From Trueperaceae bacterium (GTDB lineage Bacteria > Deinococcota > Deinococci > Deinococcales > Trueperaceae): a stretch of 64,000 nucleotides of DNA. This document shows positions 35,895 through 59,232 of this stretch, in pieces. The DNA is taken from contig OZ243927.1 in NCBI GenBank assembly GCA_965213925.1, forward strand, positions 1,376,001 through 1,440,000, read 5' to 3'. The notes below the pieces were generated by a model, which was not told the DNA's origin, did no database searches, and saw nothing but the letters and a program-made list of their open reading frames with translations. Every line of letters starts with the position of its first letter. Positions within the stretch are counted from its first letter, which is position 1. A program made the position numbers and the translations under genes.

Positions 35895-36896
35895 TTAGTT
35901 GGCGGGCGTAGCAGGCGTAGTTTCTGCCGTGTTGACATACCCACGGTTACCGAAGCCACCAATGTTCACATCGTTGACTTGGACGCGGAAGACATAAGCA
36001 AACTCGCCGTCGTTAAGGTCGCTTTCGTCCGCAGCAGGCGAGGTCTGGACCGGGTAGACACACTCAACGCTTGTCGGTGCTGGTGTAGCCGTGAGATCAC
36101 AGTCATCGGTGCTGACAGGTGCACCTAGCGTGAAGCCTTGGACCGCAGTATCTTGCTCTAAAGGTACGACGTCGTTTTCAGGGTCGTCGTCAATATCGAG
36201 GTTTCTGAGCTGGAGGGTGATTTCGCTGATGCCGTCGGCGGCGCTAGCGTTGACCTGAACGTAGAAGGTCTCGGAGTTGCTGGCGTCAATTTCTACGACT
36301 CGAGGATCATCTTCGTTATCAATGCCATTCTCGTTAGTGCCGTCCGCACCGTCGTTTAAGAAAGGACCGGTTTGACTGTCCGCTACGCCAAAAGCCGACA
36401 CGGTTGGTTCCGTATCCCCACCGGGATCAGTCGGATCGGTTGGATCAGTCGGGTCAGTACCAGGCTCAGCAATCGTCGCCGTCACCGTATCGGTCGCCGA
36501 GTCCGTTCCGTCATCCGCATCAACTTCTATTGTATAAGTACCAGCCTCGGAGAACGTAACAGTTGTTGTCTGACCTGTTTCAGGCGTGAAGGCTGCGCCA
36601 GTATCGGGGCTAACGGACCACGAGTACGTCACACTGCCGTCGGCGTTTTCGGCTGTCGCTGTAAAGTCTTGTACGAGGGTGCCAGCGTCTATGCTACCGC
36701 CTGTTTCACCACCGCCCGTGCTACTGCCGCCCGTCGGTAGTGTTTCACTATACGTAGCTGGAGTGATGCTAACCGTAAGAGGGTCGCCGTTGCCGTTGCC
36801 GTTGTCGTCACCACCATTACACGCCGCGATAGCGAGTACAAGCACGAGCAGGAGCGGAACGAACCGCACCCACAATTTATTAGACAGTTGTTGCAT
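35895..36896 (-). CDS. Acidic lipoprotein: TGG linker, PKD-like domain, (TDP)n linker and unrecognised C-terminal domain
   Basis: Lipobox LAIAAC; GGAGGA SD; VTYSWS..TF.EAGTYTIEV.A.DG PKD-like segment; C-terminal domain paralogous to 37375..38172. Confidence 0.85.
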   Translation of the reverse strand: MQQLSNKLWVRFVPLLLVLVLAIAACNGGDDNGNGNGDPLTVSITPATYSETLPTGGSSTGGGETGGSIDAGTLVQDFTATAENADGSVTYSWSVSPDTGAAFTPETGQTTTVTFSEAGTYTIEVDADDGTDSATDTVTATIAEPGTDPTDPTDPTDPGGDTEPTVSAFGVADSQTGPFLNDGADGTNENGIDNEDDPRVVEIDASNSETFYVQVNASAADGISEITLQLRNLDIDDDPENDVVPLEQDTAVQGFTLGAPVSTDDCDLTATPAPTSVECVYPVQTSPAADESDLNDGEFAYVFRVQVNDVNIGGFGNRGYVNTAETTPATPAN

Positions 36897-37374
36897 GTAA
36901 TCTTCCTCCATCTCTCATGTCTTGCTGCTTCTGTTTATACTCTCAAAACGTTGCCTTTAAGCGGCGTTGTTTACAAAGAGCCCAGTCACTTATAACATAA
37001 GGTTTTTCACTTGGCTACTCCCTGATATACTCTTTTTCTCCCCTATTTGATAGTTCGACCTCCTATCCGAACGGAAAGTGAAATTTTTTACACTTTAGCG
37101 CAATGCACAAGAGGGAAAATAGCGTAGTACCCGCTTCGCCTCACTTCGCCCGGTTTTTCGCGGATAAAATCCAACGTCTGAGGCAGTATTGGTAAAGATT
37201 AGTAAAGGGCGGTATATTAAGGCGCGCGTGGGCCAACTATGGAAGCGGAGGATGAGGTCTTTGTGAGGTATCTCGCTTCGCTGAAGCCTGATTTTGGTTA
37301 CACCTTAGATGAGGTATGAGAATTTACACTAAAGCCAGTAGAGAAACGCTCATGCTCACAAGAAAGAGGTCAGT

Positions 37375-38172
37375 ATGAACTATAAGGTAGCTTTTTCCAT
37401 CCTGTTCGTTTTAGGACTCGTCTTGGCGGCTTGCGCTCCCAGAACGCAGTCGGATACGTCGGGCGAAGTGAGAACCGAGTCGTCAGGCAATATGGCAGAG
37501 GAGATGACGGGCGGCGCGGCGGGTATGCAGGACATGGAGATGGGCACGGGCGGCGAGATGGATATGCAAGATGGCATGGAGATGGGCACAGGCGGCATGA
37601 CGGACATGGACAGCATGACGGGCGGCATGATGGACATGGACAGTATGACGGGCGGCGAGATGGACATGGAGATGGGTACGGGCGGCATGGGGGACATGTC
37701 GTCGGACGCGCAAACGGGCATGGAGAGCGATACGGAGCCGCCGATGGGAACGCTCGAGGCGGCGGCGAGCCCAGCCGGACCTTTTTATAACGACCGACCG
37801 GACGGCATCGACGACATCAGCGACGAGCGCGTCGTGAGCGTTTCGCCGGGCGACTCGTTCTTCTTGCGGGTACAGTACAGCGACGAGAGCGGCATCTCAG
37901 ACTTGGGCATTTCCCTCCGAAACTCGGCTTTCCAAGGAAACCTCCCTACCGGACCGTTTACGGTTGACGAGGCCGCGTCGACCTCTACTTGCGACGACCA
38001 GCTCGCTACGACACCTACCGAGCTTAACTGCACCATCAAAGTAGACGTGGCGGCGGACGCGCAGAACATCGACGAGAGCGGCGAGTTCGCCTACGTTTTC
38101 CGCGCCAGAGTCACTGACGCGGCGGACAATAGCGAGACCGACAACGACCGCGGCTACGTAGCAATTCGCTAA
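37375..38172 (+). CDS. Lipoprotein with Met-rich TGG repeat linker and unrecognised C-terminal domain
   Basis: Lipobox VLAAC; six TGG units among 22 Met; C-terminal GEFAYVFR...RGYV shared with 35895..36896. Confidence 0.85.
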   Translation: MNYKVAFSILFVLGLVLAACAPRTQSDTSGEVRTESSGNMAEEMTGGAAGMQDMEMGTGGEMDMQDGMEMGTGGMTDMDSMTGGMMDMDSMTGGEMDMEMGTGGMGDMSSDAQTGMESDTEPPMGTLEAAASPAGPFYNDRPDGIDDISDERVVSVSPGDSFFLRVQYSDESGISDLGISLRNSAFQGNLPTGPFTVDEAASTSTCDDQLATTPTELNCTIKVDVAADAQNIDESGEFAYVFRARVTDAADNSETDNDRGYVAIR

Positions 38173-38196
38173 ATCCGCACCGAAGTATCAGTTTAC

Positions 38197-38231
38197 AAAG
38201 CCTCCTCACTACGGTTGAGGAGGCTTCTTTT
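38197..38231 (+). terminator. Intrinsic terminator
   Basis: AAGCCTCCTCA-N7-TGAGGAGGCTT-CTTTT. Confidence 0.85.
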
Positions 38232-38249
38232 GTTACTGTAGTGCCTGAA

Positions 38250-38412: not shown

Positions 38413-38462
38413 CTTAGTACGAGTGCGCTTCATTTGGCGGGCGAAAGGTGCTATAACCGCAA

Positions 38463-40184
38463 GTGGTGGCAGTTACGTCCGAACGACTTTCACGATTATA
38501 TATAGATAGGGAGCGCGTCCTCTGGCTGGGATGCTTCGCGCTGATGGCGGCGCTGTCGCTCGCGCTCGTCTGGGGCTTTCCTTTCGTGCCGACGCAGGAC
38601 GGTCCGGCGCACTTAGACGCGGCGGCGACCCTCTTGGCGCTGTCCGAGGGTGACACGTTTTTCAGCACCTTCTTCGAGGCGCAGTGGCGTTTGGGGACCA
38701 ATCAGCTCTATCACGCCTTGCTCGTTTTGCTCGGCTCGTTCATTCCTCTGCTGCTCGCCGAAAAGCTCATCCTCAGCGTTTACGTGCTCGCCGTCCCTCT
38801 TTCGGTGCTGTTTGCGCTGCGCGGGCTAGAGCGGGCAAACGCTTTAGCGGTCTTTTTGGCGTTTCCGGTCACTTATCCCTTCGTTTTCTATCTGGGGTTT
38901 TACAACTTCTGCTTAGGGCTGGTCTTTTTTCTGTTGACGTTGGGCGTTTATCTTAGGCTGGTGAGAGCCGAGACGGGTCGGCGCAGAGCCTACCTCACCG
39001 CCCTACTCGCGCTCTGCCTCGCGCTCTGTTACGCCGCGCATATCGTCTCAGCCGCGAACGCGCTCTTGGTGCTCGGCGTCATGCTGGGCGCGTCGCTGCT
39101 GAGGGGGCAGGCTCAGGCAGCGCGTAACGCGCTCCTGGTGGCGGCGGTGGCTCTGCCTAGCGCGCTCTTCATCCTCGCCTTCTTCGTGGGTCAGCCCACC
39201 GGCGACCTGGACGGGACGACGAAATTTTTGAGCGTACCGCGCCTCATCGCTGAATTTTTCGTGCACGTCCCTGACCTGCCTTACAAGGTCTACAGCCCGC
39301 TTATCATTCACTCCTGGCTCGACGTACTCTTCACCGCGCCCTGGCATCTGCTCCTCGTGACGCTCGCCGGGCTTGCCGCGCTCAGATGCGTGCGCGCCCG
39401 GCGCGTTGTGCAGCCCGACCTCTTAGCCGCGCTCGCTGCGATGCTCCTTATCATCTTATGGACGCCTAACCGTCTGGGCGAAATCGGCTTCCTGACCGAC
39501 CGCTTTTTGCCGTACGGTTACGCGCTCCTCACCTTGTGGCTCGCGGCGGTGGAGTTTTCGTCCCGTCTCTGGCGGCTGGCGGCGGTGGCGGCGGTCATCT
39601 GCGGGGGGGCGCTCTTCATCTACCGCCTGCCCTTGCACGCGATGCTCAACGCGAACCTGCTCGAGTTCACCTCGGCGGCGGCGGTCCTCGAGGACGATAG
39701 CACCGCCCTGCCACTCATCTTGGTCAAAAACGATAACGCCTACGCGCCCACAGGTCTCGTGCTGCCGAACATGCGCTACAGCGAGGTGCTTCACGCGGTA
39801 GGGTACATCGCTTTGGAGCGTTCGCTCGTGACCCTGAACGATTACCAGGCGGCGAAGGGGTACTTTCCGCAGCGCTACGAGGCGGCGACGAGCCCGGTCG
39901 TGCACCTCAGCGAGGGAGGGTTAGCGGCGCTCGAGCGTCCCCCCTTCGCCTTCGACTTGCGGGCTTACGAAGCCGAAACAGGGGAGAGCGTGGACTATCT
40001 GCTCCTCTGGGGCGACTTAGAAGAGGTCGGGGAGCGCCCGGACGTGCAGGCTATCTTCGCGCAGCTAGCGGCTTACGACCTCATCTACACCTCCGAGCCG
40101 CGCGCGCTGATGCGCGTCTACGCGCGGTCCGCGCTATCGTCGGTGGAGGGGCCGAAACGAGTCGAAGCGGGACCGAGACCGTGA
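38463..40184 (+). CDS. Polytopic membrane protein, putative GT-C fold glycosyltransferase
   Basis: First loop PTQDGPAH, then about 12 TM segments (GFYNF, Y.AH, DRF) and a soluble C-terminal domain; glycan-locus context. Confidence 0.55.
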   Translation: MVAVTSERLSRLYIDRERVLWLGCFALMAALSLALVWGFPFVPTQDGPAHLDAAATLLALSEGDTFFSTFFEAQWRLGTNQLYHALLVLLGSFIPLLLAEKLILSVYVLAVPLSVLFALRGLERANALAVFLAFPVTYPFVFYLGFYNFCLGLVFFLLTLGVYLRLVRAETGRRRAYLTALLALCLALCYAAHIVSAANALLVLGVMLGASLLRGQAQAARNALLVAAVALPSALFILAFFVGQPTGDLDGTTKFLSVPRLIAEFFVHVPDLPYKVYSPLIIHSWLDVLFTAPWHLLLVTLAGLAALRCVRARRVVQPDLLAALAAMLLIILWTPNRLGEIGFLTDRFLPYGYALLTLWLAAVEFSSRLWRLAAVAAVICGGALFIYRLPLHAMLNANLLEFTSAAAVLEDDSTALPLILVKNDNAYAPTGLVLPNMRYSEVLHAVGYIALERSLVTLNDYQAAKGYFPQRYEAATSPVVHLSEGGLAALERPPFAFDLRAYEAETGESVDYLLLWGDLEEVGERPDVQAIFAQLAAYDLIYTSEPRALMRVYARSALSSVEGPKRVEAGPRP

Positions 40185-40774
40185 CGCCCCTCGGACACCT
40201 CGCCGTTTCCTACAGCCTCGCCAAGGTTAGTCTTGCTAAGGTGCCTGCTCGTCCCTCCGTTTTGCCCTACGTCATCGTGGGCGGACTCGCGCCGGACCTC
40301 GACTTCTTGTTGCTTGGTTTGCCGAACTTCAACGCGCTGCACCGCTCGCTCACCCACAACCTCTTTTTCGTCTTGGCGGTTGCGGTACTTTGCGTTCTTT
40401 TCGTACACTCGAGGCGTGGCGCTCAGCGCGGTGTGGGCGCGGTCCCCTTAGTCGCTATTTCCTTAGGCGCTGTGACGGGTGGGCTAAGTCATCTTTTTGT
40501 AGACGCTATCCTTGACAGTAATGCGAGCAACGGCGTGGGCGTGGCGGCGCTGTGGCCCCTAAGCGAGCAGTTCTTCTCGCCCTTTAACCTGGCTCCGCAG
40601 CGCTGCCCCGGCTGGGACGACCCTCCCTCAGCCGTTCTCTGCAACTTGCCACTCCTTCTCTGGGAGGTGCCCGCTTACCTCCTCGCCGCGCCTCTCTGGT
40701 GGCGCACCAGAACGCACCGCATGAAGAACACCGCATGTCAACAGGAACCGAGTAAGGAAAAGGTACGTTTATGA
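40181..40774 (+). CDS. YdjM-like membrane metal-dependent hydrolase
   Basis: GH, APDLD, HRSLTH, SHLFVD, LWP motifs. Confidence 0.85.
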   Translation: MTPLGHLAVSYSLAKVSLAKVPARPSVLPYVIVGGLAPDLDFLLLGLPNFNALHRSLTHNLFFVLAVAVLCVLFVHSRRGAQRGVGAVPLVAISLGAVTGGLSHLFVDAILDSNASNGVGVAALWPLSEQFFSPFNLAPQRCPGWDDPPSAVLCNLPLLLWEVPAYLLAAPLWWRTRTHRMKNTACQQEPSKEKVRL

Positions 40775-42270
40775 AACTATTCGAGGTATTTCGCTCAGAG
40801 CGCGCTGCGTCCGACATGCTCACCGGACAGGCTCCCCGGCAGGCGACCGGACGGGACGAACCCTGGCTCACGGCGCTGAGCCGCGGCTTTCCGCTCACGC
40901 TCTTCGTCGGGGCGCTCTTAGCGCTTTCGGTGGCGCTACTCTTTTTCATGTCGGTCAACCGGTTTTTCGACCACGACGAGTTCGAGGCGATGCACACGAC
41001 CTGGAAGATGTTTCAGGGACAGGAGATTTACACCGACTTTATTCAGCACCATCATCCCTTTATGTACTACACGCTGCTGCCGCTCTACGCGCTCTTCGGC
41101 GGCACGACCGACGTGCTGATTGCGGCTAGGGTCTTTATCTTCTTTCAACTTGCGGGGATGCTCCTGCTCACGTATGGAATCGCTTACGAAGTCTACAAGC
41201 GCCACCTGGTCGCGCTCACGGGGACGCTCTTCCTCTCGTTCACGGCGCTCTTCACCGCGAAAGCCTTGGAGGTTCGCCCCGACGTCCCTCAGAGCCTCCT
41301 CAGTTTGCTGGGTCTCTATCTCATGGTGCGCTTTTTCCGCACGCGCTCGCTTTGGCTACTCATCGCCAGCGGCGTCTCGTTCGGCGTGTCCATCCTCTTT
41401 CTGCAAAAAGGTATCGTTTTTGCGGGGCTCGCCGGATTGGTCTTACTGGGTCGGTGGCTCTTCGGACGCGACGTTAAGTTCGTGCAAGGGCTCCTCTTTG
41501 CGGGCTCGGTGCTCGCGCCGCCGGTCGTTTACGCGCTCTATCTGCTCGCGAGTGGCAAGTTGCAGTCCTTTATCTTCTGGAACTTCACCTATAACACGGT
41601 CTACTACGACCTGCGCGGCTGGGAAGCGGAGAAGCTCATTCGTAACATCAACAACCTCTACAACGAAAATAGTCTAATCTTGCTGCTCTTCGCCGTGACG
41701 TTTTTCTTTTTACGTAAGGCGAGGCTCGAGTGGGAACTCCTCTTTCTTGCCGCTGGTGTCTTTGGCTTTACCCTCCTTACGGGTCGGCACAACCCGCAGT
41801 ACTACCTCTTGGTCTTTCCCTTCGTGACGATTCTGGCGGCTCGGGGTCTTATCACAGGTCTGCGGGGGCGCGGCGCGGTGGCAGCGCTCGTAGTGACGTT
41901 CGTCGCCTTTATGCCGCTCGTCAACCAGGCTAGAAACGCCTTCGTCTATACCAACGACGGGCAAATCGCCAAAATCCAGTACGTTTTAGACCTTACCGAG
42001 CCAAACGACTACGTCTACGACGGCAACATTTTCTTCAACCTCTTCCGCCGCGACATCGACTTTATCTGGTACATGGCGGGCGAACCCTACAAAGCCGCCG
42101 AGACGCTCGCAATCCTTATCGACTACGACTACAACGTCTACGAAGCTATCGAGCGCTACGAGCCTAAAGTCATCTCGACGTTTGGCATCGATAACATGGA
42201 CGACCCGCGCATCGCGGAGCACTACGCTAAGTTACCTAAATACGATGACCTCTTTATTCGCACTGAATAG
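40771..42270 (+). CDS. GT-C (PMT/ArnT-like) membrane glycosyltransferase
   Basis: DHDE acidic motif after TM1, Y.DF..HH.P, EVRPD, QK, PQY; multi-TM. Confidence 0.75.
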   Translation: MKLFEVFRSERAASDMLTGQAPRQATGRDEPWLTALSRGFPLTLFVGALLALSVALLFFMSVNRFFDHDEFEAMHTTWKMFQGQEIYTDFIQHHHPFMYYTLLPLYALFGGTTDVLIAARVFIFFQLAGMLLLTYGIAYEVYKRHLVALTGTLFLSFTALFTAKALEVRPDVPQSLLSLLGLYLMVRFFRTRSLWLLIASGVSFGVSILFLQKGIVFAGLAGLVLLGRWLFGRDVKFVQGLLFAGSVLAPPVVYALYLLASGKLQSFIFWNFTYNTVYYDLRGWEAEKLIRNINNLYNENSLILLLFAVTFFFLRKARLEWELLFLAAGVFGFTLLTGRHNPQYYLLVFPFVTILAARGLITGLRGRGAVAALVVTFVAFMPLVNQARNAFVYTNDGQIAKIQYVLDLTEPNDYVYDGNIFFNLFRRDIDFIWYMAGEPYKAAETLAILIDYDYNVYEAIERYEPKVISTFGIDNMDDPRIAEHYAKLPKYDDLFIRTE

Positions 42271-42345: not shown

Positions 42346-43932
42346 ATGTTACAGACACTTCACAACCGGTACATCCAGTTCATTTGTTTCGCACTTCTCA
42401 CCGCAGGTTTAGCAGCTTGCGGTGCCCGCACCGACCCTGCCGAAACCGAAGTGCCACTCGCCGATCTGGTCACTGAGGAAATTAGGGTGGAACTCAATCC
42501 CCATGACGTCGCCCCCTTGACCGCCGAGGTTAGCTTCACAACGCGCGTGCCGACCCGCGTGACCCTCACGGTTGCGGGCGAAGAGCCCGTCACGCAGTCC
42601 TTCGCTGAAGCGACCGAGCACCGTATCCCCGTTTTGGGTCTCTACCCCGACACCGAAAACGAGGTCACGCTGCGTTTAGAGAGCGCCGAAGGATACGCCG
42701 AGACAACGGAACGTATCCAGACGGAGGCGCTACCCGCGCGACTGCCAGCGGTCACGATCGCCACTGTGCAGCGCGGCGAAGTGGAGCCAGGCTGGAACCT
42801 GAGCGCGTTTAGAGTCAGCGGCATGCCCGACTACCCTCTGCCTTTCATGTTTGACCCGAAGGGCGAGGTGCGCTGGTACTTAAACCTCGACGCCTTCGAG
42901 GGGCGCACCACCTTCCCGAGACGGCTCGCGAACGGCAACCTGATCTTCGGGTTTGAGAGCGCCCTCTTTGAATACACCATGCTCGGCGAAGAGGTGAACC
43001 GCTGGGAAATCCCCGGTTACAGATACCACCACGAGATTACTGAGAAGCCGGACGGCAACTTCATCGTCGCTGTCGATAAAGAGGGGGAGGAGACCGTCGA
43101 AGACTTTATGGTCGAGGTCGAGCGCGAGACGGGCGAGATCGTGCGCGAGTGGGACTTGCGTAAGATTCTCGACGTGGACCGCCAGACTTACGCCGAAACC
43201 TCCTTTGTCCGGGGCGAAGAGGACTGGTTTCATATGAACGCCATCTGGTACGAGCCTTCGGACAAAACGCTCGTCGTCTCCGGGCGGCACCAGGGGGTCG
43301 TCAAGGTGACGATGGAGAACGAACTCGTGTGGATTCTCGCGCCGCATAAGGGCTGGCAAGAGAACAGCAGTGGCGTCGACCTGCCTGAGTATCTACTAAC
43401 CGCCGTGGATGAAGACGGTGAGCCTTACCCAGAAGCGGTCCAGCAGGGCGACGTAGACGCTGAAGGGTTTAGTTGGGTCTGGGGGCAGCACGCGCCGCTC
43501 ATCTTGCCCAACGGCAACCTGTTCGTCTTCGACAATGGGGAGAGCCGCAACTTCACCGGTAACGGCACCGGCAGCTTCACCCAGGACGGTCCGAGCTTTA
43601 GCCGCGGCGTGGAATATAGAATTGACGAAGCAGCGATGACTATAGAACAGGTCTGGCAATATGGAGCGGAGCGCGGCGAAGAGTTCTACTCGCCGATCAT
43701 CAGCGACGTGGACTACTTGCCGCAGACGAACAACCGCCTCGTCATGCCGGGCATCATCAGTAACTTCGACCCGCCCTCCTACGCGCTCATGACGGAGGTA
43801 ACTTACCCTGGCAAAGAGGTCGTCTTTGAGGCGCGGCTCGAGTTCAAAAATCTCGCCGACGGGGAGAGTGTCTTTGGCGACTCGGTCTACCGCTTCGAGC
43901 GGTTGCCGCTCTATCCGGCTACTACGCAGTAA
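42346..43932 (+). CDS. Aryl-sulfate sulfotransferase (ASST) lipoprotein
   Basis: Lipobox LAAC; NP..APLTA, LGLYPD..N.V, G.VRWY, HHE, DWFHMNA, SGRHQ, QH, FDNG. Confidence 0.88.
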   Translation: MLQTLHNRYIQFICFALLTAGLAACGARTDPAETEVPLADLVTEEIRVELNPHDVAPLTAEVSFTTRVPTRVTLTVAGEEPVTQSFAEATEHRIPVLGLYPDTENEVTLRLESAEGYAETTERIQTEALPARLPAVTIATVQRGEVEPGWNLSAFRVSGMPDYPLPFMFDPKGEVRWYLNLDAFEGRTTFPRRLANGNLIFGFESALFEYTMLGEEVNRWEIPGYRYHHEITEKPDGNFIVAVDKEGEETVEDFMVEVERETGEIVREWDLRKILDVDRQTYAETSFVRGEEDWFHMNAIWYEPSDKTLVVSGRHQGVVKVTMENELVWILAPHKGWQENSSGVDLPEYLLTAVDEDGEPYPEAVQQGDVDAEGFSWVWGQHAPLILPNGNLFVFDNGESRNFTGNGTGSFTQDGPSFSRGVEYRIDEAAMTIEQVWQYGAERGEEFYSPIISDVDYLPQTNNRLVMPGIISNFDPPSYALMTEVTYPGKEVVFEARLEFKNLADGESVFGDSVYRFERLPLYPATTQ

Positions 43933-44000: not shown

Positions 44001-44957
44001 TTAAGGTTGACGCCCTAGCTCACCCTTAGCACGCCCACCTCGCAAAAACGCTACCACCTGCCACGCCACAACTGGGAAGCTCACGAGTGATAAAAACCAG
44101 TACGCAAAGAGCGTGTAACCTAGACCGACGAGCGTCGCTTGTTCGGGGCTCATCTGGCTACCGAGGAGCGCTACGAACGCGGCGTCGCGCGTGCCGATAC
44201 CGCTGACCGTCACGGGCACAAGTCCTGCTAAAATCGCAAGCGGAAAAATTGCGTAGGCGAAACCCAGCCCTAAGCCCGTTCCGAACGCTTGCCCTAGGGC
44301 GAAGACGGTAAAGCCGCCCAGCGACCAGGTGAGAATGGACCCGCCGAGGGTCTGTGCAATGGCGGCGCGGTCTCCCAGCCAACGGGTGAAGACCGTGCGC
44401 AAGTCTTGCAAGATTTGCGTTACTTTATCTGGTAGGGGCAACTTCTCTATAGGCAGCAGCGTCACGACTAAAAAAATACTTAAAACGCCACCTAAAAGCC
44501 CTACGCCTGCGACGAGTCCCCAGAGCGTGCCGTTGACGAGCAGACCTAAGAGCCCGAGCGCGCCCAGGACGCCTAAATCGACGAGGCGCTCGAGGATCAC
44601 TGTCCCGGTCCCCTTCGCGAGCCCGCCCTGCTCGCGTAAGTAGACTGCCTTCGCCACGTCGCCCGACTTCGAGGGCAAAAAGCTGTTCAGCACGTTCGCC
44701 ATCATCACGGCGCGTAGCGCCACCAAAAAGGGTAAAGTCGCGTCTTGCGCCCGCAATACGCCGAGCCAGCGGAATACGCTCGTGAAGGGCAGGGCGCAGG
44801 TGAGCAGGGCGGCGAAGAGGAGCCAGCCCCAGTTCGCCTCAGCGAGCAGCTCGGCGGTGCGAGCCAGGTCGATTCGCGCCAAAAGCCAGGTGACGAGCCC
44901 AGCCGAGACGAGGACGCTTAGGAGTCCTAGAAGGGTACGTTTATTGTCATGCATCAT
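44001..44957 (-). CDS. Lysylphosphatidylglycerol synthase TM / flippase-like protein
   Basis: RW..L, N..LPS..GD..K, ER..DL, P.T.SGIGTRD. Confidence 0.88.
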   Translation of the reverse strand: MMHDNKRTLLGLLSVLVSAGLVTWLLARIDLARTAELLAEANWGWLLFAALLTCALPFTSVFRWLGVLRAQDATLPFLVALRAVMMANVLNSFLPSKSGDVAKAVYLREQGGLAKGTGTVILERLVDLGVLGALGLLGLLVNGTLWGLVAGVGLLGGVLSIFLVVTLLPIEKLPLPDKVTQILQDLRTVFTRWLGDRAAIAQTLGGSILTWSLGGFTVFALGQAFGTGLGLGFAYAIFPLAILAGLVPVTVSGIGTRDAAFVALLGSQMSPEQATLVGLGYTLFAYWFLSLVSFPVVAWQVVAFLRGGRAKGELGRQP

Positions 44958-45727
44958 TGATCATTATATTCGCCGTCATAGTTGCTTTCTTGCTGCTTTG
45001 ACTCAGGTGTCTCTTGAGAGGTGAGAAAAACGCCGATGCCAGCGGCGAAGGCGAGCGACAGCGCGGCGTTCATCTCCAACACCTCTTCTAAAAACGCCCA
45101 CTTGCGCGGCACGAAACCCTGACTATCGATGAAAAGAGCGCAGGTCGCTAGAGCCGCGCCCAGTATAACGTACAGCCAAGCGGAGCGCGGCGTCAGCGCG
45201 GCGCTAAGCTTGCCCCATTCGCCCCGAAATAGCCACGCAACTAAACCCAGCGAGACGCTTAGCAGGACGAACGCACTAATCAAGAAACCAGCGTACCAGG
45301 GCACCCCCTGGGACTCGAACCCCTTGACCACGATGCGCGCGGAGTCGTGCAGGGCGTCAAAGGTCATGCCGCTAGGGAGGGTCGGAAAGGTTAGATTCGG
45401 AAAAATCCTCTGACCGTAGCTGATCTCCTCTAGCACCCCGATGAGACAGAGCGCCGTAAGCGCGCCCATCCACCTAAAGCGGTACGCGCGGTTAAAGAGC
45501 CCGAGCGCGGTGAGACTCGCACCTAAAAAATAGAAGGCGAGGCTCGCGTTCTCGATCAGTGCGTCCTCTTGTACCAGCACCTCGCGCAGCTCAGGAAAGA
45601 GCGCGTAGGCGAGCCCGCAGAGGCTGAAACTCAAGGCGAGAAGTGCTGCGTAGAGCGCAACCGGCCACCAGCCGGGCAGCGCCGCCGCCTTATCTTGCGC
45701 AGATGAGAATGGACGTGATTGGCTCAA
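44954..45727 (-). CDS. Conserved membrane protein of unknown function
   Basis: QEDALIEN, LEEISYGQRIF, H, EE.LE acidic motifs between TM helices. Confidence 0.7.
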   Translation of the reverse strand: MSQSRPFSSAQDKAAALPGWWPVALYAALLALSFSLCGLAYALFPELREVLVQEDALIENASLAFYFLGASLTALGLFNRAYRFRWMGALTALCLIGVLEEISYGQRIFPNLTFPTLPSGMTFDALHDSARIVVKGFESQGVPWYAGFLISAFVLLSVSLGLVAWLFRGEWGKLSAALTPRSAWLYVILGAALATCALFIDSQGFVPRKWAFLEEVLEMNAALSLAFAAGIGVFLTSQETPESKQQESNYDGEYNDQ

Positions 45728-45818: not shown

Positions 45819-45842
45819 GTAGGGGCGCTCGTGCGCCCCTAC
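45819..45842. repeat. GTAG-type REP
   Basis: GTAGGGGCGCTCGTGCGCCCCTAC, overlapping the stop codon at 45839. Confidence 0.7.
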
Positions 45843-47569
45843 TTTATATCGAGCGGGACGCTCCGCTCCAACTCAAACCGCTTTGTCTCGTTTAGTGTAG
45901 CGAGTTGTTCACGGTCTAGCGTGACGCCTGACACACCCAGCTCTTGAGATTGAAAGTAGCGCGACTGCGGCACGTAACGCACGAAAAACTCGTCGCCCAG
46001 CGAGAGCGAGGCGATGTTCATGTCCTCGTTCAGCGTAAGGGTGTCGCTCAGCTTGACTTCATCCTTGCCGAACGATACCTGCCGCCGAAAGGTCAAAGGC
46101 GCAGGGCGCTGCCCCAACATGAGCGTCTTACGAATCTGCCCTTTTAAGAGGTGCGCGAGTTTAGGTGACCAACCTGTCAAGAGCAGCACGCCGCGAAAGG
46201 CGAGGTTTTTGGTGAGGCTAAAGACCTTGTGCGACGGCACCCACTGCGCGCTCCCCGAGATTTCGAAACCCCCCTCATCCTGCTTCACCTTAAAGCTCGG
46301 GTCGATCCACTGGCTCGTAAAGGTTTTACCCTCTTTGGTCTGCCCGATATGACCGCAATCGTTGAAGATGAGGTCGCCCTTTTTCCCCTTGCCCGACCTG
46401 TTGAATATCTTGAGCACGCCCCCCTTGGCGAGGTTGGCAACCGCGTAGTAGTTAGGCGTGTTCTTGACGTAGACGCGGCAGCCGGGGAAAAAGTCGGTAA
46501 AGGGCTCACGCTCGAAGGGTAGGGCGGGTCTGTCGTCCGGCTTCTGAGCATAGTCCAAGTAGGCGAGCAGAAACTCCGGCACGCGGTACACCAGATATCT
46601 GTCCGAGATGATTTCGGGCGGCACGAGCTTATCCTCGGCGAGCCCGCCCAGAAGGTGCTCCGCTACGGAGCCCGCCAAAGGTATCTCATTCGCCATCACC
46701 TCGAAGCCGTGACAGTAAAAGTGGAGCGTGTTGCGGCTGCCCATGCTGCCCGCGTAGAAACCGTTCGGATAGGCGAAGTAACTGCACTTCTCCACAGACG
46801 CCTTCATCACCTTTAAGAGCCTGGGATCGGGATTGGTCTGATAGATTTTCGCTAGAAAGGAGACCGTCGCCGAGAGGTAGCCGGGGTCGATGCCGTCGTA
46901 TTCGATCGACCAGCCCTCGTCGGTGTGGTAGCTCAAAAAGTCCTTCCAGACCTTTTCGAAACCCGCCTTGAGCGCCTCGTCGCCTAAAAGCTCATACGAC
47001 TTCCAAACCGCCAAGCACGCCATCGCGTGGTGATTCGCTAGGTGGTCCTCTTCGGACTCGCCCGCCGCGATGAAGTGCGCAGCTTTGCGCACTGCGTTCA
47101 AGACCTTTTCGCGCACCTCTTCGGGTACCTCGTCACCGAGTAAATTCAGCGCTTCGATGCTCGTGTAGGTCGTGAACGCGGTCGGGCCGACCCAACCGCG
47201 CTCGTAAGGATAGAACTCGTCGAACGAGCCGTCCTTATGCTGAATGTCCGCCCAGAAGCTGAGCCCCGCCACGGTCCAGTCGCGCACCTTTTCGCTTCCA
47301 TAATAGATGTTGCCCGGCATGTCATGCTTGTAGACGAGCGCTAGCGCGTGCACCGCAAACTGCCGCACGGCGTCGGGGAAGTCCGAGGTTTTGTCCAGCC
47401 AGTAGTCGCGGTGCAGACAGCCGTACGTCGGCGAGGTCGGCGTGCGGTCTTGGTTGCTCAAGATGCGCGGAATCTGCCCTAAGGCTTTTTGCGCGTACAC
47501 GTTTCGGAGCGTACTCGTCATCTGCTCGCTCGCACTCTCTTCACGCTGCTTTGTCGCGGTATCTGTCAC
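45839..47569 (-). CDS. Hypothetical cytoplasmic protein, probable alpha/alpha-toroid carbohydrate-modifying enzyme
   Basis: DR.P.SPTYGC..R.YW..K..DF, QHKDGSFDE.YP.E, ANH, G...EY.G.DPGY motifs; located in the glycan operon; fold is inferred. Confidence 0.55.
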   Translation of the reverse strand: MTDTATKQREESASEQMTSTLRNVYAQKALGQIPRILSNQDRTPTSPTYGCLHRDYWLDKTSDFPDAVRQFAVHALALVYKHDMPGNIYYGSEKVRDWTVAGLSFWADIQHKDGSFDEFYPYERGWVGPTAFTTYTSIEALNLLGDEVPEEVREKVLNAVRKAAHFIAAGESEEDHLANHHAMACLAVWKSYELLGDEALKAGFEKVWKDFLSYHTDEGWSIEYDGIDPGYLSATVSFLAKIYQTNPDPRLLKVMKASVEKCSYFAYPNGFYAGSMGSRNTLHFYCHGFEVMANEIPLAGSVAEHLLGGLAEDKLVPPEIISDRYLVYRVPEFLLAYLDYAQKPDDRPALPFEREPFTDFFPGCRVYVKNTPNYYAVANLAKGGVLKIFNRSGKGKKGDLIFNDCGHIGQTKEGKTFTSQWIDPSFKVKQDEGGFEISGSAQWVPSHKVFSLTKNLAFRGVLLLTGWSPKLAHLLKGQIRKTLMLGQRPAPLTFRRQVSFGKDEVKLSDTLTLNEDMNIASLSLGDEFFVRYVPQSRYFQSQELGVSGVTLDREQLATLNETKRFELERSVPLDIK

Positions 47570-47863: not shown

Positions 47864-48817
47864 TCATGACTTCGTCTCCCTATGCCGAGCGTTCGTCTTG
47901 TCAATGAGGTCGGCGAGCATCCCCGTGGTCAAAACCTGAATCGCCGAGACGAAGAGGATGACGCCTAAGACCAAAAGCCCTTCGCCGGCGATGAGGCGGT
48001 AGATAAGGACCAAGAAGCTCGCCAGAAAGAGTACCAAGCTTATCGGCACGAACACCCGGAGCGGATTGAAGTACATCACGGTGCGCACGACGAGCTGGGT
48101 GAACCTGACCGTGTCTTTGATGGGGTGGATTTTGGAGTCGCCTGCGCGGTGGTAGTAGTCGATGGGGACGTACTTGACGTCGTAGCCGTCCGAGAGCATC
48201 GCGAGCGTGATGGTCGTCGTGAACGAGAAGCTGTCGGGAAGGATATGCATAAACTTTTTGACTGTAGTCTTGCGCATGACGCGCAGCCCCGAGTTGAGGT
48301 CGGGTATTTTGGTGTCCGAGAGGTGGTTGGCGAGTTCGTTGAGCGCGCGTTTGGCGGGTTTACGCGCCAGGGGAATCTGCACGTTCTGCCCAGTCCTCGC
48401 GCCGACGAGCATGTCGTTATCACCGAGCGACTTGATCAACTCGGGCAGCCGCTCGTTGGGATAGGTGCCGTCGGCGTCGGTGATCGCCATGAGGTCATAC
48501 CGGGCGTGTTTAAGCCCCGTTTTAAGCGCCGCGCCGTAGCCCTGGTTGACCTCGTGCTTGACGGTTCTGACGTTCGGCATAGAGATAGCCGCCATGAGTT
48601 CGCCCGTGCCATCCGTCGAGCCGTCGTCCACCAAGATAATCTCATAAGTCAGACCCGAGTCGTCCATGTGGCGGCTCACCTCTTGAACGGTCTCCTCGAG
48701 CGCCCCGATTTCGTTGTAAACGGGGATGACGACCGAAACCTCGAGGGGTGCGTTCGGCGAGGTCATCGGCGGCTTTGACGAAGTTTCCGGTAACACGTCT
48801 GGTGATATTACATCCAT
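47864..48817 (-). CDS. GT2 polyprenol-phosphate glycosyltransferase (DPM1/GtrB-like)
   Basis: VVIPVYNE, VDDGSTDG, N.GYG.ALK.G, DADGTY, DLNSG.R; two C-terminal TM segments. Confidence 0.92.
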   Translation of the reverse strand: MDVISPDVLPETSSKPPMTSPNAPLEVSVVIPVYNEIGALEETVQEVSRHMDDSGLTYEIILVDDGSTDGTGELMAAISMPNVRTVKHEVNQGYGAALKTGLKHARYDLMAITDADGTYPNERLPELIKSLGDNDMLVGARTGQNVQIPLARKPAKRALNELANHLSDTKIPDLNSGLRVMRKTTVKKFMHILPDSFSFTTTITLAMLSDGYDVKYVPIDYYHRAGDSKIHPIKDTVRFTQLVVRTVMYFNPLRVFVPISLVLFLASFLVLIYRLIAGEGLLVLGVILFVSAIQVLTTGMLADLIDKTNARHRETKS

Positions 48818-53222: not shown

Positions 53223-53346
53223 TTTCAGCGCGGCGCTTTGACAAACCGCTGACATCGCCACGTTAAGTTGCCCGTGAGGTCTTTCACAGGTGAAGCGCGA
53301 CTGAGCGAAGCTTGGAGCCGTGCCTGTGGCTTCAGAGGAGGAGACT

Positions 53347-55437
53347 ATGCTAGGACGACTTCTTGGGTACGCGGCGCTCGGCGGCGCGGCACTTACAGGC
53401 ACCGGTTTTGCACAAACGGGTGGCGCGACGGGTGGCGCGATGACAGGGGGCATGGAAACGGGAGGTTCAGCCGACCTCTCCATGTCGCAGACGAGCGACC
53501 CGTATTACGCGCTAGGACAGCAGACCCTACAGCAAATGCTGGAGCAACAGCCTAACAACAATGAGGCGCAAAACGTCATCATCTTCGTCGCGGACGGTGC
53601 CGGACCCACGACGGTCACGGCAACGCGCATCTTAGCGGGGCAAATGAAGGGTTTGCAGGGCGAAGAGAACATCCTCCCTTACGACACTTTCCCGAACGTC
53701 GCTTTGATCAAAACCTACAACTCCAACGCGCAAGTCCCTGACTCGGCGGGCACAGGTACGGCCTGGAGCACGGGCATCAAGACGAAGCAGGGCGTACTGG
53801 GCGTCGGCCCGGATGTGATGCGCGGCGACTGCGCCTCTGCCCAGGAAAACCGCCTCACCACCCTTTTCGAACTCGCCGAGACGGTCGGCATGGCGACAGG
53901 TACGGTTAGCACCGCCCGCATCACCCACGCGACGCCAGCGGCCAACTACGCGCACTCCGCCGACCGCAACTGGGAGGACAACTCCGCGCTGCCCGAAGAG
54001 GCCGTTCAGCAAGGCTGCACGGACATCGCCTCGCAGCTTATCGAGTTTCCTTATGGCGACGGCTTAGAGGTCGCGATGGGCGGCGGACGCCGCCACTTTT
54101 TGCCCGAGGACGTGCAAGACCCCGAAGACGAAAGTGAGACGGGCCGCCGCACCGACGGGCGCAACTTAACCCAAGAGTGGGTACAGGGACGTGAAGGGGC
54201 GACGTACGTCTGGAACCAAGAGAACTTTGACGCCATCGACGCGACCTCTACAGGTCCGGTTTTGGGACTTTTTAATCAGTCACACATGGAGTACGAGGCG
54301 GACCGCTCCGAGGACACGGGCGGCGAGCCTGCGCTTAGCGACATGGTCTCTAAAGCCATCGACATCTTGTCGCAAAACGAACAAGGCTACATCCTCCAGG
54401 TCGAGTCGGGTCGCGTGGATCATGCCAGTCACGGCACGAACGCCTTTCGCACGCTGACCGATAACATCGCGTTCGCCAACGCGGTACAAACCGCGCTGGA
54501 CAAAGTGGATACCGAGAACACCCTCATTATCGTCACCGCCGACCACGCCCACACGATGGACATCGCGGGCTATCCGCAGCGCGGTAACCCGATTTTGGGT
54601 TTAGTCAGAGGGCTCGACGACCAGGGCGAGCCGGTGGACGAACTCGCGCTCGCCGCCGACGGCAAGCCCTACACCACCTTGGGCTACCTCAACGGTCCCG
54701 GCGCGGTCATCGGCGAACGCCCCGACCTTACAGACGTGGACACGCAAGCGAAAGACTTCTTTCAGCAGGCGCTCGTCCCGCTGAGCAGCGAGACACACGA
54801 CGGCACGGACATCGCTGCGTACGCCATCGGTCCGCGTGCGTACCTCGTCCGCGGCACCGTCGAGCAGAACTACCTCTTCCACGTGATGAACTACGCCTTA
54901 GGCAACTTGGCAGAGCAAGCTGGCGTCAGCGCCGAGGCGCAGGGCGACGCGCCTCAAGTTGAAACGGGTATGACCGACCTCTCGGTGTTAGCGAGCGGCA
55001 CCAGCTTCTCGAGCAGCGCCCAAGGTGGTGAGATGACCGGCGGCGAGATAACAGGTGGCGCGATGACGGGCGGCGAGACCGGCGGTGAAGCTACGGGCGC
55101 ACCCGCTGGCGACTCGACTGTGAGCACGCCGAACTTAGATGAGACCATCTCCGCCCTAGAGGGCGGCGTGGAGAACTTGGACGAGGATACCGCGGTTGAG
55201 GTCATCCGAGGCTGGCAGCAGCGCCTCAGCAGCTTAGACGACCCCGACTTGCAGCCCATTGTGACCTCTTTAGAGCAGCTCGGGACGGCGCTCGGCACGG
55301 GCAGCGCGCAAGCCACCGACATCCTCTCCCGCTTGGGCGAAGAGACCACGCAGTACGCGGAGGGCTTAGAGGGTCAGCAAGCCGAGTCGGTGCGCCGCTT
55401 AGGTGAACTCCTCTCGCAGGCGGCGTCGGGCAACTAA
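53347..55437 (+). CDS. phoA: Secreted PhoA-type alkaline phosphatase with TGG linkers and an extra C-terminal helical domain
   Basis: Signal peptide ending GFA-Q; NVIIFVADG, PDSA (catalytic Ser), THATPA, E.GRVDH..H, TADH, ETH.G.D; GAGGAGG SD. Confidence 0.92.
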   Translation: MLGRLLGYAALGGAALTGTGFAQTGGATGGAMTGGMETGGSADLSMSQTSDPYYALGQQTLQQMLEQQPNNNEAQNVIIFVADGAGPTTVTATRILAGQMKGLQGEENILPYDTFPNVALIKTYNSNAQVPDSAGTGTAWSTGIKTKQGVLGVGPDVMRGDCASAQENRLTTLFELAETVGMATGTVSTARITHATPAANYAHSADRNWEDNSALPEEAVQQGCTDIASQLIEFPYGDGLEVAMGGGRRHFLPEDVQDPEDESETGRRTDGRNLTQEWVQGREGATYVWNQENFDAIDATSTGPVLGLFNQSHMEYEADRSEDTGGEPALSDMVSKAIDILSQNEQGYILQVESGRVDHASHGTNAFRTLTDNIAFANAVQTALDKVDTENTLIIVTADHAHTMDIAGYPQRGNPILGLVRGLDDQGEPVDELALAADGKPYTTLGYLNGPGAVIGERPDLTDVDTQAKDFFQQALVPLSSETHDGTDIAAYAIGPRAYLVRGTVEQNYLFHVMNYALGNLAEQAGVSAEAQGDAPQVETGMTDLSVLASGTSFSSSAQGGEMTGGEITGGAMTGGETGGEATGAPAGDSTVSTPNLDETISALEGGVENLDEDTAVEVIRGWQQRLSSLDDPDLQPIVTSLEQLGTALGTGSAQATDILSRLGEETTQYAEGLEGQQAESVRRLGELLSQAASGN

Positions 55438-55974: not shown

Positions 55975-56138
55975 CGGCAGGTTACTTCGTTCCGTCTCCT
56001 CCCGAAGGGAGCAGCCTACGGAAGGCTTCGCTTCGTGGAGATAGCTACGCGCAATCAAAATCGGTCTCGCTTATGCTCGGAACTGGTCATCAACGCAGCG
56101 AGTTTCGCAAGCGCTCCCTTTAGCTCGAGGTGGTCATT

Positions 56139-56843: not shown

Positions 56844-56982
56844 GGCTCGAGTTTGTTATGCTTGTCCTACGTTATATAACGCTTCACGCTTTTCATAAGG
56901 ATGCGGCGATCGCGTATATTCTGGGAAACTTACACCACATGGGATGCTCTAGTCAAAGTCAACAACTACTGGGGAAAATGCA

Positions 56983-57414: not shown

Positions 57415-57528
57415 TTCGCAGCGACAAACTGTTGCAATAGACTCGAAAAAGCCCCTCGCCACCGAATAGGGGCGTTGAGGCACCTTTCACTGACGTCCCA
57501 CTGACACAAACCCGCTATTTTAGAGTCT

Positions 57529-59232
57529 ATGTCCAGTCTCTCCGCCGGACTCAAGCACTTGCGTCTCACGCTCTGGGTCCTCCTGCGCTCCTTGCGAATG
57601 CGCCTCTTCGCTAACGTCTTAACCGTCGTCGCGGTGCTCTTAGGCGTCGGTTTGGCGCTGGTTGTCCCTTTGAGCCTCCGCGCTTTTCAACGCGGCGCAA
57701 CCGAGGCGGCGCAGATTTTCGACCTCTTGGTCACAGCAGAGGGCTCGCAGACCCAAGCGGTGCTGAGCACGATTTACTATCAGAACGCGCCCGTCGGTAA
57801 CATTCCGTACCGCGTCTACGCCGCGCTGAGGGATGACCCGCGTACCGAGCGGGCGGTGCCCGTCGGCTTCGGCGACAGCGTTCAGGGCTATCCGCTCGTC
57901 GGTACGACGCCTGCGTACTTCGCGCTAAGGACCGCGCCGCAAGCGCCACTTTATTATCAGCTCGAGCGAGGGACCATCTTCTCAGGTCCCTTTCAAGCTG
58001 TTCTGGGCGCACAGGTCGCTAGAGAGACGGGCTTCGACTTGGGCGACACCTTTAGAAGTGCGCACGGCGTGACCGAAACCTTCGAGCCCACTATGCACGC
58101 CGACGAGTACCGTGTGGTCGGGATTTTGGAGCCGACGGGCGGACCTTCGGACCGGGCGGTGTATACGGCGCTCGAATCCATCTGGAATTCACACGGGCAG
58201 TTTTCACCCGAAGCGGGCACGGTGGACGCGGAACATGCGTGCGCACACATGACGGGCGGGGCGGGCGAAACGCGAACGGCGAAGCTCGAGCCTGAAAATT
58301 TAGACACAGTTAGCGAGGTTCACACCCGTTACGAAGTAGGTCTGTTGGCGCTAGCGGGCGCAGACAGGGGCGGCGTGCTGCGCTTCACGGCGGATGAAGC
58401 GGCAGACTACGCCTTTTTCGCTGACCAGAGCGCTGTCCTTACTCTCACGGATGAACGTGGAGAGGCGCTCACTCCCGAACTCGTAGTTGGAGAGGACGAT
58501 ATCGAAGCGTGCCTGGATATTTTCTCGGCGCACGTTTTCCATGTCGAATCCGGCGACTATCTCTTGCAGGTCAACGCGGCAGAGCGTGACATATTGACTT
58601 TAACTATTGAAGAGGTCGGGCGTGAGGGTGAGGCGCGCACTGAAGAGGTCGCGGCTCTCACCGACCTCGCGGACGCATCACCTGGCGGGGCGGACCCCAG
58701 AGAGGTCACTGCTGTTCTCTATGCGACCGAAGATTTAGGGGCGCTCTACCAAATTGCCGGGACGCTAGACGAGCTTCCCGGCGTGCAGGCGGTTTTTCCG
58801 GGCGGTGTCATCAACGGGCTTCTGAGCTTACTCGGTCAGGGGCGGCAGACCTACGGGCTCTTGGCGAATATCATCTTAGCTTTAGCGGTCATCACGGTGG
58901 CGCTCAATACGTACGCGGGCGCGGTGCAGGCGCAGAAGAGCTTGGCGGTGTTGCGGGCGGTGGGCGTATCGCGGTCCATTGTTGCGGGAAGCGTGCTTTT
59001 AGAAGCCGCGCTGCTAAGTTTCATCGGCATCGTGCTAGGTGTGTTTGCGGCGTACTTGGGCGTCACTTTGGTCGGGCAAGTGATTCAAACCCAAGCGAGT
59101 TTGACCTTGCCCACGCCCGAGCTGAGCCGCGCGGACTGGTGGCGCGGGCTCATCCTCTTGCCGGTGGCGGTGCTTTTTGCGCTGCTGCCTGCGCTAAGGG
59201 CGGCGCAAAAGAGCCCCTTGGAGAACTTATAA
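57529..59232 (+). CDS. FtsX/MacB-like ABC permease with a large inserted extracytoplasmic domain
   Basis: DL.V.A.GS..Q.VL..IY, P..FGDS..GYP.VGT, HG, VVGIL.PTG.P.DR, LAVLRA.G; insert of roughly 140 aa. Confidence 0.88.
   Translation: MSSLSAGLKHLRLTLWVLLRSLRMRLFANVLTVVAVLLGVGLALVVPLSLRAFQRGATEAAQIFDLLVTAEGSQTQAVLSTIYYQNAPVGNIPYRVYAALRDDPRTERAVPVGFGDSVQGYPLVGTTPAYFALRTAPQAPLYYQLERGTIFSGPFQAVLGAQVARETGFDLGDTFRSAHGVTETFEPTMHADEYRVVGILEPTGGPSDRAVYTALESIWNSHGQFSPEAGTVDAEHACAHMTGGAGETRTAKLEPENLDTVSEVHTRYEVGLLALAGADRGGVLRFTADEAADYAFFADQSAVLTLTDERGEALTPELVVGEDDIEACLDIFSAHVFHVESGDYLLQVNAAERDILTLTIEEVGREGEARTEEVAALTDLADASPGGADPREVTAVLYATEDLGALYQIAGTLDELPGVQAVFPGGVINGLLSLLGQGRQTYGLLANIILALAVITVALNTYAGAVQAQKSLAVLRAVGVSRSIVAGSVLLEAALLSFIGIVLGVFAAYLGVTLVGQVIQTQASLTLPTPELSRADWWRGLILLPVAVLFALLPALRAAQKSPLENL

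Follow-up and report, generated by a model that had tools for sequence, protein, structure and literature searches.

Why do Thr-Gly-Gly (TGG) units cluster in the low-complexity linkers of otherwise unrelated exported proteins, and are they served by the locus in which they were first noticed? This locus lies in a 64,000-nucleotide stretch of DNA from a Trueperaceae bacterium (GenBank assembly GCA_965213925.1, contig OZ243927.1, positions 1,376,001 to 1,440,000 of the forward strand), which we refer to as the window. A first-pass annotation of the window had proposed that TGG is a lineage-specific modification sequon or sorting tag, handled by a set of glycosyltransferase genes located among the TGG carriers. 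We analyzed the motif in the window, in the whole genome (G000) and across related genomes. A modification sequon was found to be the best-supported reading of the arrays. More specifically, we propose, with a probability of roughly 0.45, that [Thr/Ser]-Gly-Gly-x(1-2) is an acceptor motif O-glycosylated by P0001, a membrane protein encoded outside the window.

Translation of the open reading frames (ORFs) confirmed the unit counts first reported for three proteins in the window. The lipoprotein at 35895..36911 (minus strand; lipobox LAIAAC) contains a PKD domain (Pfam, 30.3 bits) and an array of 3 TGG units starting at residues 60, 65, and 70 (amino acids (aa) 60-72). The lipoprotein at 37375..38172 (plus strand; lipobox LVLAAC) has a Met/Asp/Glu-rich tail and 6 units, at residues 45, 58, 72, 82, 92, and 102, and matched no family in Pfam or NCBIfam. 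The two lipoproteins, 35% identical over 170 aa (E 6e-19), are paralogues with a common C-terminal domain. The third carrier, the exported alkaline phosphatase PhoA (53320..55437, plus strand; PF00245, 429 bits), bears two arrays of 4 units each, located by translation and DNA pattern. The N-terminal array (53416..53465; residues 33, 37, 42, and 47) begins right at the end of the signal peptide (...FAQ), and the linker array (55036..55085; residues 573, 578, 583, and 587) is placed by Pfam at the junction between the phosphatase domain and a C-terminal helical domain of ~110 aa. One stray TGG, at residue 333 of PhoA, lies within the fold. The FtsX/MacB-type permease at 57529..59232 (plus strand; identified by translation and Pfam) had also been named as a carrier. 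Its two isolated TGG units (aa 203 and 242) are not significant by themselves, and it fell outside the phenomenon by every test made.

To place these arrays in the context of the proteome, we used the genome G000 (4.75 Mb, 96.9% complete), in which a rough codon-usage gene call gave 4,089 genes. Proteins were classified by a crude rule of our own based on hydrophobicity and the lipobox; both this classifier of signal peptides and the gene call are thus heuristic. A cluster was defined as 3 or more TGG within 40 residues, and a pair as TGG-x1-2-TGG. TGG clusters were found in 23 proteins, all of which (23/23) have a signal peptide or lipobox: the classifier called 20 of them signal-peptide proteins or lipoproteins, and inspection by eye revealed a plain signal peptide in each of the remaining 3 (two PhoA paralogues and a metallophosphoesterase). 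No cluster occurred among the 848 multi-pass membrane proteins, and those same 3 were the sole cluster carriers among the 2,233 proteins classed as cytoplasmic. Compared with the 1,008 of 4,089 genes in the exported class, this is a strong enrichment (Fisher p = 9e-15). TGG pairs gave a similar result, with 31 of 33 proteins exported (p = 3e-17), one of them via a twin-arginine signal; the two non-exported proteins, RpoC and a 252-aa protein, have a single pair each, inside a folded region. The earlier claim that TGG clusters mark exported rather than cytoplasmic proteins therefore holds genome-wide.

The motif was also found to be specific in its sequence and register. When tripeptides were ranked by the number of proteins in which they cluster, TGG came first (23 proteins), followed by AAL (12), while SGG clustered in 3 proteins and the shifted forms GTG and GGT in 1 each. 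At the DNA level, the 3-unit pattern had 64 matches in G000 versus 5 for the reversed pattern. Sixty-one of the 64 lay on the sense strand in frame 0 within 19 called genes and the other 3 in a tiny uncalled ORF; none was off-frame, antisense or intergenic. The 161 TGG units are encoded by 35 distinct 9-mers, so the arrays are not simple copies. Inside the arrays, the first position of XGG was occupied by Thr 134 times, Gly 14, Ala 5, Gln 2, Glu 2, and Ile 1, and never by Ser (0), which was present in the arrays as a spacer residue. The 103 gaps of up to 6 residues between units comprised 1 residue in 39 cases and 2 residues in 56, and a gap of 0 never occurred; the spacers were chiefly A, M, D, E, S, and G, and neither Lys nor Arg is present in the arrays. 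In 12 of the 23 carriers the array starts 0-3 residues past the 'AQ' that ends the signal peptide, in 6 it ends within 2 residues of the C-terminus, and the others are interdomain linkers. The carriers belong to diverse Pfam families, including fasciclin (three), PhoA (two), SurA/PpiD-like proteins (two), a cyclophilin isomerase, three solute-binding families, 5'-nucleotidase, metallophosphoesterase, DUF4397, Lipoprotein_15, a dockerin-like protein, and a Tat-exported protein of the metallo-beta-lactamase fold, along with several proteins of no family. TGG is a motif selected at the protein level and restricted to exported proteins.

The number of units varied among PhoA orthologues. The N-terminal array has 4 units in the window, 4 in G147, 1 in G183, and 0 in G231, and the linker array has 4 in the window, 5 in G147, and 9 in G183; the G231 orthologue (genus g4) has neither arrays nor the linker nor the C-terminal helical domain. 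This helical domain (55090-55437 of the window, ~110 aa) has no Pfam family. It was also observed as a stand-alone, array-flanked protein in G000 (C1:4352375-4352908), inside a 349-aa array protein of G147 (L206), and within a 604-aa lipoprotein of G189 (L025) whose final domain contains an HGFHVHE motif and is Cu/Zn-SOD-like by eye only.

We then examined how the arrays are distributed, using counts of the DNA pattern in an even sample of 251 genomes from the phylum and in all 128 genomes of the family. High counts in the phylum sample were confined to one family, in the window's genus g1 (64, 48, and 33) and in g9 (27 and 30). Lower counts in this family were observed in g20 (4 and 10), g4 (6, 4, 2, 2, 0, and 0), and g55 (7; control 4), the last being a single genome, G292 (unpublished). 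In total, multi-locus [ST]GG arrays were identified in 14 of the 128 family genomes, from 5 genera. The other 114 had at most 5 TGG-pattern and 6 SGG-pattern matches, mostly zero, and the matches listed for them were of other kinds, such as (GGGS)n. The arrays of the lower-count genera lie in exported orthologues of the same families and have genus-specific spacers (TGGAE, AMTGG). In G147 (g9), a signal peptide was present in each of the 5 array proteins whose N-terminus was complete, and 3 more run off the DNA examined. A collagen-like (Gly-x-y)n protein of g9 was also seen to carry TGG arrays in its C-terminal part (L209; G147:C1:4435200-4438800). A Deinococcus-like genome, G155, had 16 pattern matches (L109-L118) and was considered as an independent case. 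It was rejected because the matches lie in short spurious frames, probably antisense of other linkers, showing that DNA-level counts of the motif need a frame check; no match to the P0001 family was found in this genome.

In four species of g4, Ser takes the place of Thr in the motif. SGG-pattern matches numbered 13 in G306, 14 in G231, 9 in G199, and 11 in G308 (controls 0), and these four species have 0-2 TGG matches each. Of the other two g4 genomes, G086 had TGG matches only (6, versus 0 for SGG) and G307 was mixed, with 4 TGG and 7 SGG; no SGG-pattern match was found in G000. The SGG arrays occupy orthologues of TGG carriers, including the tiny peptide, the SurA-like isomerase, the fasciclin, and the dockerin-like protein. 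Each species uses Thr or Ser almost exclusively. Unlinked genes have exchanged Thr for Ser in concert while retaining Gly-Gly and the unit spacing, which is difficult to understand unless the residue has a shared reader. That SGG replaces TGG in the same orthologues suggests that this hydroxyl residue is read by a factor acting in trans. Of the original proposal of a lineage-specific sequon or tag, the lineage specificity and the protein-level selection hold, and the motif behaves as if read in trans; no support was found for the part that the locus in the window serves it.

The candidate reader, P0001, is a 677-aa membrane protein of the Wzy_C family (G000:C1:4353506-4355539, minus strand; 56.3 bits versus a cut-off of 31.7). 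Wzy_C (PF04932 / IPR007016) is its sole Pfam family (E <= 0.01). Orthologues with strong matches to P0001 (E <= 1e-95; 45-52% identity over ~400 residues) were found in 14 of the 128 family genomes, a set identical to the 14 that bear multi-locus [ST]GG arrays; none of the other 114 has one (0/114), these having weak paralogue matches (E >= 1e-15) or none. We modeled the 495-aa orthologue from G189 with AlphaFold2 from an alignment of 18 sequences (predicted local distance difference test score 76.9, predicted template-modeling score 0.82). The top Foldseek match of the model was WaaL (7TPG_B; E 7.6e-7, template-modeling score 0.58 on the target, 16% identity), followed by FtsW and RodA of the shape, elongation, division, and sporulation (SEDS) family, and the modeled structure shows P0001 to have a WaaL-like fold. 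An alignment of 11 orthologues revealed an invariant Arg-Gly-His, several invariant Arg, RPLxGWG, and KAHN-x9-G-x-x-G, the last of which we take to resemble a motif of the WaaL and PilO ligases. In the g1 proteins, an insertion of ~165 residues (residues ~85-250) adds four predicted membrane helices that resemble one another; the g9, g20, and g4 orthologues in the alignment lack this insertion. A search of G000 (96.9% complete) for LpxC (PF03331), the single lipid A gene searched, gave no match while the controls matched, and a lipid A-core acceptor is therefore unlikely.

P0001 was also found beside repeat genes. In G000, a mini-gene missed by the gene call (C1:4353241-4353384, L046:10241-10384, plus strand) encodes 47 aa that consist of a signal peptide and (TGGMM)5 only. 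P0001 is convergent on it, and a 177-aa protein with arrays at both ends is another neighbor. A repeat gene lay within ~1.5 kb at 9 of the 16 informative P0001 loci, in 4 of the 5 genera, and the type of neighbor varied by genus; one further P0001 contig was too short to judge. Mini-genes of 42-60 aa with a signal peptide and (TGGxM)n adjoin P0001 in G000 (47 aa), G058 (60), G206 (42), and G307 (47). In G306, a (MSGG)5 mini-gene ends 24 bp ahead of the P0001 ORF, and in G308 ~300 bp separate a 41-aa MSGG mini-gene from an 80-aa fragment that is similar to the N-terminus of P0001. EF-hand-like repeat proteins of 193-250 aa adjoin P0001 in G189 and at both loci of G261, and a 273-aa repeat protein adjoins it in G292. 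Genes encoding nothing but a signal peptide and repeats have been kept in 6 genomes. With ~24 array genes in 4.75 Mb, the chance of an array gene within 1.5 kb in G000 is ~1.5% per gene, or ~12% for any of the 8 Wzy_C genes. Since the pairing recurs in four genera with different neighbors, it is unlikely to be due to chance.

Together, these findings suggest how the arrays might work. Tandem [Thr or Ser]-Gly-Gly-x(1-2) would be a lineage-specific acceptor in the disordered tails and linkers of cell-envelope proteins, and the hydroxyl residue of each unit would be O-glycosylated at the outer face of the cytoplasmic membrane. P0001, as a WaaL-fold Wzy_C enzyme, would act as the O-oligosaccharyltransferase that moves a lipid-linked glycan to protein, and this putative enzyme would be distinct from the glycosyltransferase and flippase cassette of the window. 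The small secreted repeat-only proteins beside P0001 may be dedicated acceptors. The glycan could serve, for example, in protease protection or hydration of the exposed linkers. A broader account is more tentative than the acceptor proposal itself: a Trueperaceae clade may possess general protein O-glycosylation with a tandem sequon, a new WaaL-fold enzyme family otherwise confined to some filamentous cyanobacteria, dedicated secreted mini-peptides made of sequon only, and a recent co-evolution of enzyme and sequon by which one subgroup went from Thr to Ser acceptors throughout its exported proteome.

Several observations weigh against this proposal. Modification of the motif, its glycan nature and the role of P0001 as transferase are things that we infer, and the chemistry of the TGG units is predicted only. 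No repeat gene was found within ~6 kb at 7 of the 16 P0001 loci, including those of both g9 genomes. In addition, the perfect co-occurrence may count for less than 14 cases. In a quick single-gene tree of DnaK (37 rows), with supports from the Shimodaira-Hasegawa-like approximate likelihood-ratio test (SH-aLRT), the P0001-positive genera fell into one clade (SH-aLRT 97) together with seven P0001-negative genera, and g1 and g4 were sisters (99). The P0001 label needs 4 changes on this tree, and the well-supported branches force only 1. Because so few changes are forced, the co-occurrence may reflect few events or a single one, and the 14 genomes may have inherited both arrays and P0001 from one ancestor.

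The assignment of activity to P0001 is also open to objection. It had no NCBIfam match and no sequence match in the Protein Data Bank (PDB), and neither a PglL_A nor a Wzy_C_2 domain was found in it (Pfam, E <= 0.01); judged by domain content, it is not a member of the PglL class. G000 holds 8 Wzy_C genes, and family-wide profiles were made for two of them. Moreover, the Wzy_C domain and WaaL fold are common to ligases that do not act on proteins. The nearest relatives of P0001 outside the family are from filamentous cyanobacteria (35-40% identity), and no proteome-wide [ST]GG arrays were found in 5 such genomes, which had 0-9 matches in isolated arrays only. At two cyanobacterial loci (L074 and L080), we observed that the P0001 homologue adjoins a small secreted low-complexity protein with a PEP-CTERM-like C-terminus. 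Finally, we looked for residues of P0001 that follow the Thr/Ser choice. Three alignment columns differ in the Ser-type rows, namely Q/H289N, beside an invariant EMGDG motif, and columns 333 and 334. However, the G307 copy that adjoins an MTGG peptide also carries N, leaving no clean determinant of specificity.

The alternative that best survives is that the arrays are unmodified, flexible, hydrophilic, and protease-tolerant spacers that drifted to TGG by repeat expansion, with no enzyme reading them. In bacteria, a signal peptide is commonly followed by a disordered tail. The arrays are ~46% Gly, some of those in G086 are near-perfect DNA repeats, and the fast change in unit number among the PhoA orthologues is typical of low-complexity DNA. 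However, a neutral spacer would be expected in cytoplasmic linkers as well, and none of the 23 carriers (0/23) is cytoplasmic. It would also be expected to mix Ser and Thr, whereas Thr occurs 134 times and Ser 0 here and SGG is used species-wide in four congeners, and it would not account for the strict register (23 proteins for TGG versus 1 each for GTG and GGT). The retention in 6 genomes of genes that encode just a signal peptide and the repeat likewise speaks against this reading. We consider neutral spacers unlikely.

A second alternative is the pathway proposed from the window itself, namely that its polyprenyl-phosphate-sugar genes O-glycosylate the Thr of TGG in the manner of the actinobacterial PMT enzymes. 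The central gene is a GT-C glycosyltransferase of the PMT_2 family (40771..42270, plus strand; 33.9 bits versus a cut-off of 26.1), one of just two PMT_2 matches in G000; against the PMT model proper (PF02366) it scored 21.1 bits, below the cut-off of 22.7. Upstream lie a multi-pass membrane protein without a Pfam family (38463..40184, plus strand), for which language-model features were nearest to clusters of RgtA/B/C/D-like glycosyltransferases (a lead only), and YdjM (40181; Pfam/NCBIfam). Downstream are an arylsulfotransferase (42346-43932; Pfam/NCBIfam) and, on the minus strand, a flippase-like LPG_synthase_TM protein (44001-44957; Pfam/NCBIfam), a membrane protein (44954-45727) and a 576-aa protein of no assigned family (45839-47569), both cassette partners of 40771, and a family 2 glycosyltransferase (GT2) of polyprenyl-phosphate-sugar-synthase type (47864-48817), with NCBIfam matches to AglJ, ArnC, and dolichyl-P hexose transferase that are all below cut-off. 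A small polysaccharide cluster (28833..35602, minus strand) comprises a family 4 glycosyltransferase (28833), a Wzy_C protein (30022-31371), an AsnB-type amidotransferase, and a Wzx-type flippase (34082-35602). Pfam and NCBIfam confirmed these genes around the carriers. The 650-bp gap between the AsnB and Wzx genes (33430-34080) was seen to contain 2-3 diverged direct repeats of ~190-207 nt with a 54-nt core that is 78% identical, a GC-rich palindrome (33664-33701), and a 222-aa ORF that looks spurious.

In favor of this pathway, 40771 exceeds the PMT_2 cut-off, the GT2 is of the appropriate type, and the cassette order GT2, 576-aa protein, (membrane protein), flippase-like protein, GT-C is kept in 4 genera, all of them array-bearing, with the arylsulfotransferase as an insertion in g1 only. 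Two TGG lipoproteins flank the cassette in the window's genus. The earlier observation that carriers sit next to GT-C genes was therefore correct for g1, but it did not extend to the TGG-rich g9, in which the lipoproteins do not adjoin the cassette. The distribution of the genes also argued against the pathway. Homologues of 40771 (E <= 1e-5) were found in 9 of the 128 family genomes (3/3 of g1, 2/2 of g9, 2/2 of g20, and 2/6 of g4) and not in the array-bearing G086, G306, G307, G308, and G292; G086, which is one contig, and G308 are 99% complete. Thus 5 of the 14 array-bearing genomes lack 40771. Homologues of 38463 were found in 10 of 128 genomes, and 4 of the 14 have none. Homologues of 30022 occurred independently of the arrays, in 38 of 128 genomes from 17 genera, most of them array-free, and none was found in the TGG-rich G147. 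Nor does the presence of the cassette track Thr-type versus Ser-type species. Because 40771 and 38463 are missing from array-bearing genomes, the link to the GT-C locus fails, and co-occurrence and synteny together led us to reject it as the system at work here. The cassette does constitute a genuine module for periplasmic glycosylation, one that is neither necessary for nor specifically tied to the arrays, and we regard glycosylation of TGG by the window pathway as improbable.

It is just as doubtful that the Met-rich arrays (MTGG, DMTGG, and MMTGG) are periplasmic tails for metal binding, such as of Cu(I), or for oxidant scavenging, with the Wzy_C neighbor unrelated. Met makes up ~9% of array residues versus 2% of the proteome and is the most frequent residue before TGG (42/161), and the tiny peptides and lipoprotein 37375 are extremely Met-rich. 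However, many arrays are free of Met, with spacers of A, S, Q, E, and G at C1:3875238, C1:1628642, C1:1818, and C1:4380392, the arrays have no His or Cys, and metal binding would leave the invariant Thr-Gly-Gly core and the Thr-to-Ser switch unexplained.

Gly-Gly bridges occur in the peptidoglycan of Deinococcota, the arrays are confined to exported proteins and 6 of 23 end near the C-terminus, but a sorting or anchoring tag for the cell wall or for a sortase-, exosortase- or rhombosortase-like system, the other half of the original proposal, is very improbable, since the arrays may be N-terminal (12 of 23 just past the signal peptide), internal or C-terminal, vary freely in unit count, and have no LPx prefix, no following membrane helix, no basic tail, and nothing that qualifies as an LPxTG signal.

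We return to the proposal that P0001 glycosylates the arrays, and to what it would mean. PglL-type O-glycosylation lacks a usable consensus site, which hampers glycoprotein prediction and glycoconjugate design. If the proposal is true, the brief tandem tag, portable and paired with a single enzyme, would be one of the few O-sequons with a definite sequence, and protein O-glycosylation would be extended to Deinococcota. The Thr-type and Ser-type sister species would then offer a natural experiment, with matched sets of enzyme and substrates, on how an O-oligosaccharyltransferase chooses its residue. Even if unmodified, the arrays would remain a striking low-complexity motif that spans the proteome, is confined to one compartment, is pure in its residue at the level of the species, and needs an explanation. 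We found nothing in print on protein O-glycosylation in Trueperaceae or Deinococcota, nor on LPG_synthase_TM proteins together with glycosyltransferases, nor, among the matches listed, on Thr-Gly-Gly repeats of bacterial exported proteins.

Among known systems, the general O-glycosylation of Bacteroidota uses the motif D-(S/T)-(A/I/L/V/M/T). The arrays would be similar as a phylum-level short sequon on exported proteins and differ in that the third position is Gly, Asp is not required, and the units are tandem. Actinobacterial O-mannosylation, with Ppm1 and a PMT of family GT39, resembles the window cassette in its combination of a polyprenyl-phosphate-sugar synthase GT2 with a GT-C enzyme, and resembles the arrays in targeting Thr-rich disordered linkers of exported proteins. 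However, the cassette does not co-occur with the arrays, and 40771 is above the cut-off for PMT_2 and not for PMT. WaaL (7TPG) is the best structural match of the P0001 orthologue model and has the same Pfam domain, but its acceptor is the lipid A-core, and LpxC was not found in G000.

The closest parallels are with O-oligosaccharyltransferases, as described in a review (PMC12645811). All known members share the Wzy_C domain with WaaL, so the domain alone cannot assign activity. PglL and PglS also bear PglL_A and Wzy_C_2, whereas TfpO and TfpM do not, and several classes are encoded beside their substrate (PMC12645811). P0001 is similar to TfpO/PilO and TfpM in its Wzy_C-only architecture, and may be similar to the group of TfpO/PilO, TfpM, and PglS in that a putative substrate gene adjoins the enzyme at 9 of the 16 P0001 loci, with no repeat gene within ~6 kb at the other 7. 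It differs in that each of those enzymes acts on a single pilin, either on a C-terminal Ser/Thr or on one internal Ser/Thr, while the neighbors of P0001 are non-pilin repeat proteins and the TGG motif is spread over ~25-30 other exported proteins. Enzymes of the PglL type, as in Neisseria, Burkholderia, and Acinetobacter, act where periplasmic proteins are disordered, and in three genera they are specific for Ser (PMC12645811). PglL follows no defined sequon, its preference being for Ser in stretches rich in Ala/Pro, whereas the motif here is a strict tandem [ST]-G-G-x1-2 with mostly Thr; P0001 also differs in lacking PglL_A and Wzy_C_2 and in its host, which belongs to Deinococcota. As that account of PglL describes, however, one Wzy_C/WaaL-like enzyme would, by our prediction, serve many unrelated periplasmic proteins and lipoproteins, with disordered low-complexity tails and linkers as its targets and with discrimination between Ser and Thr.

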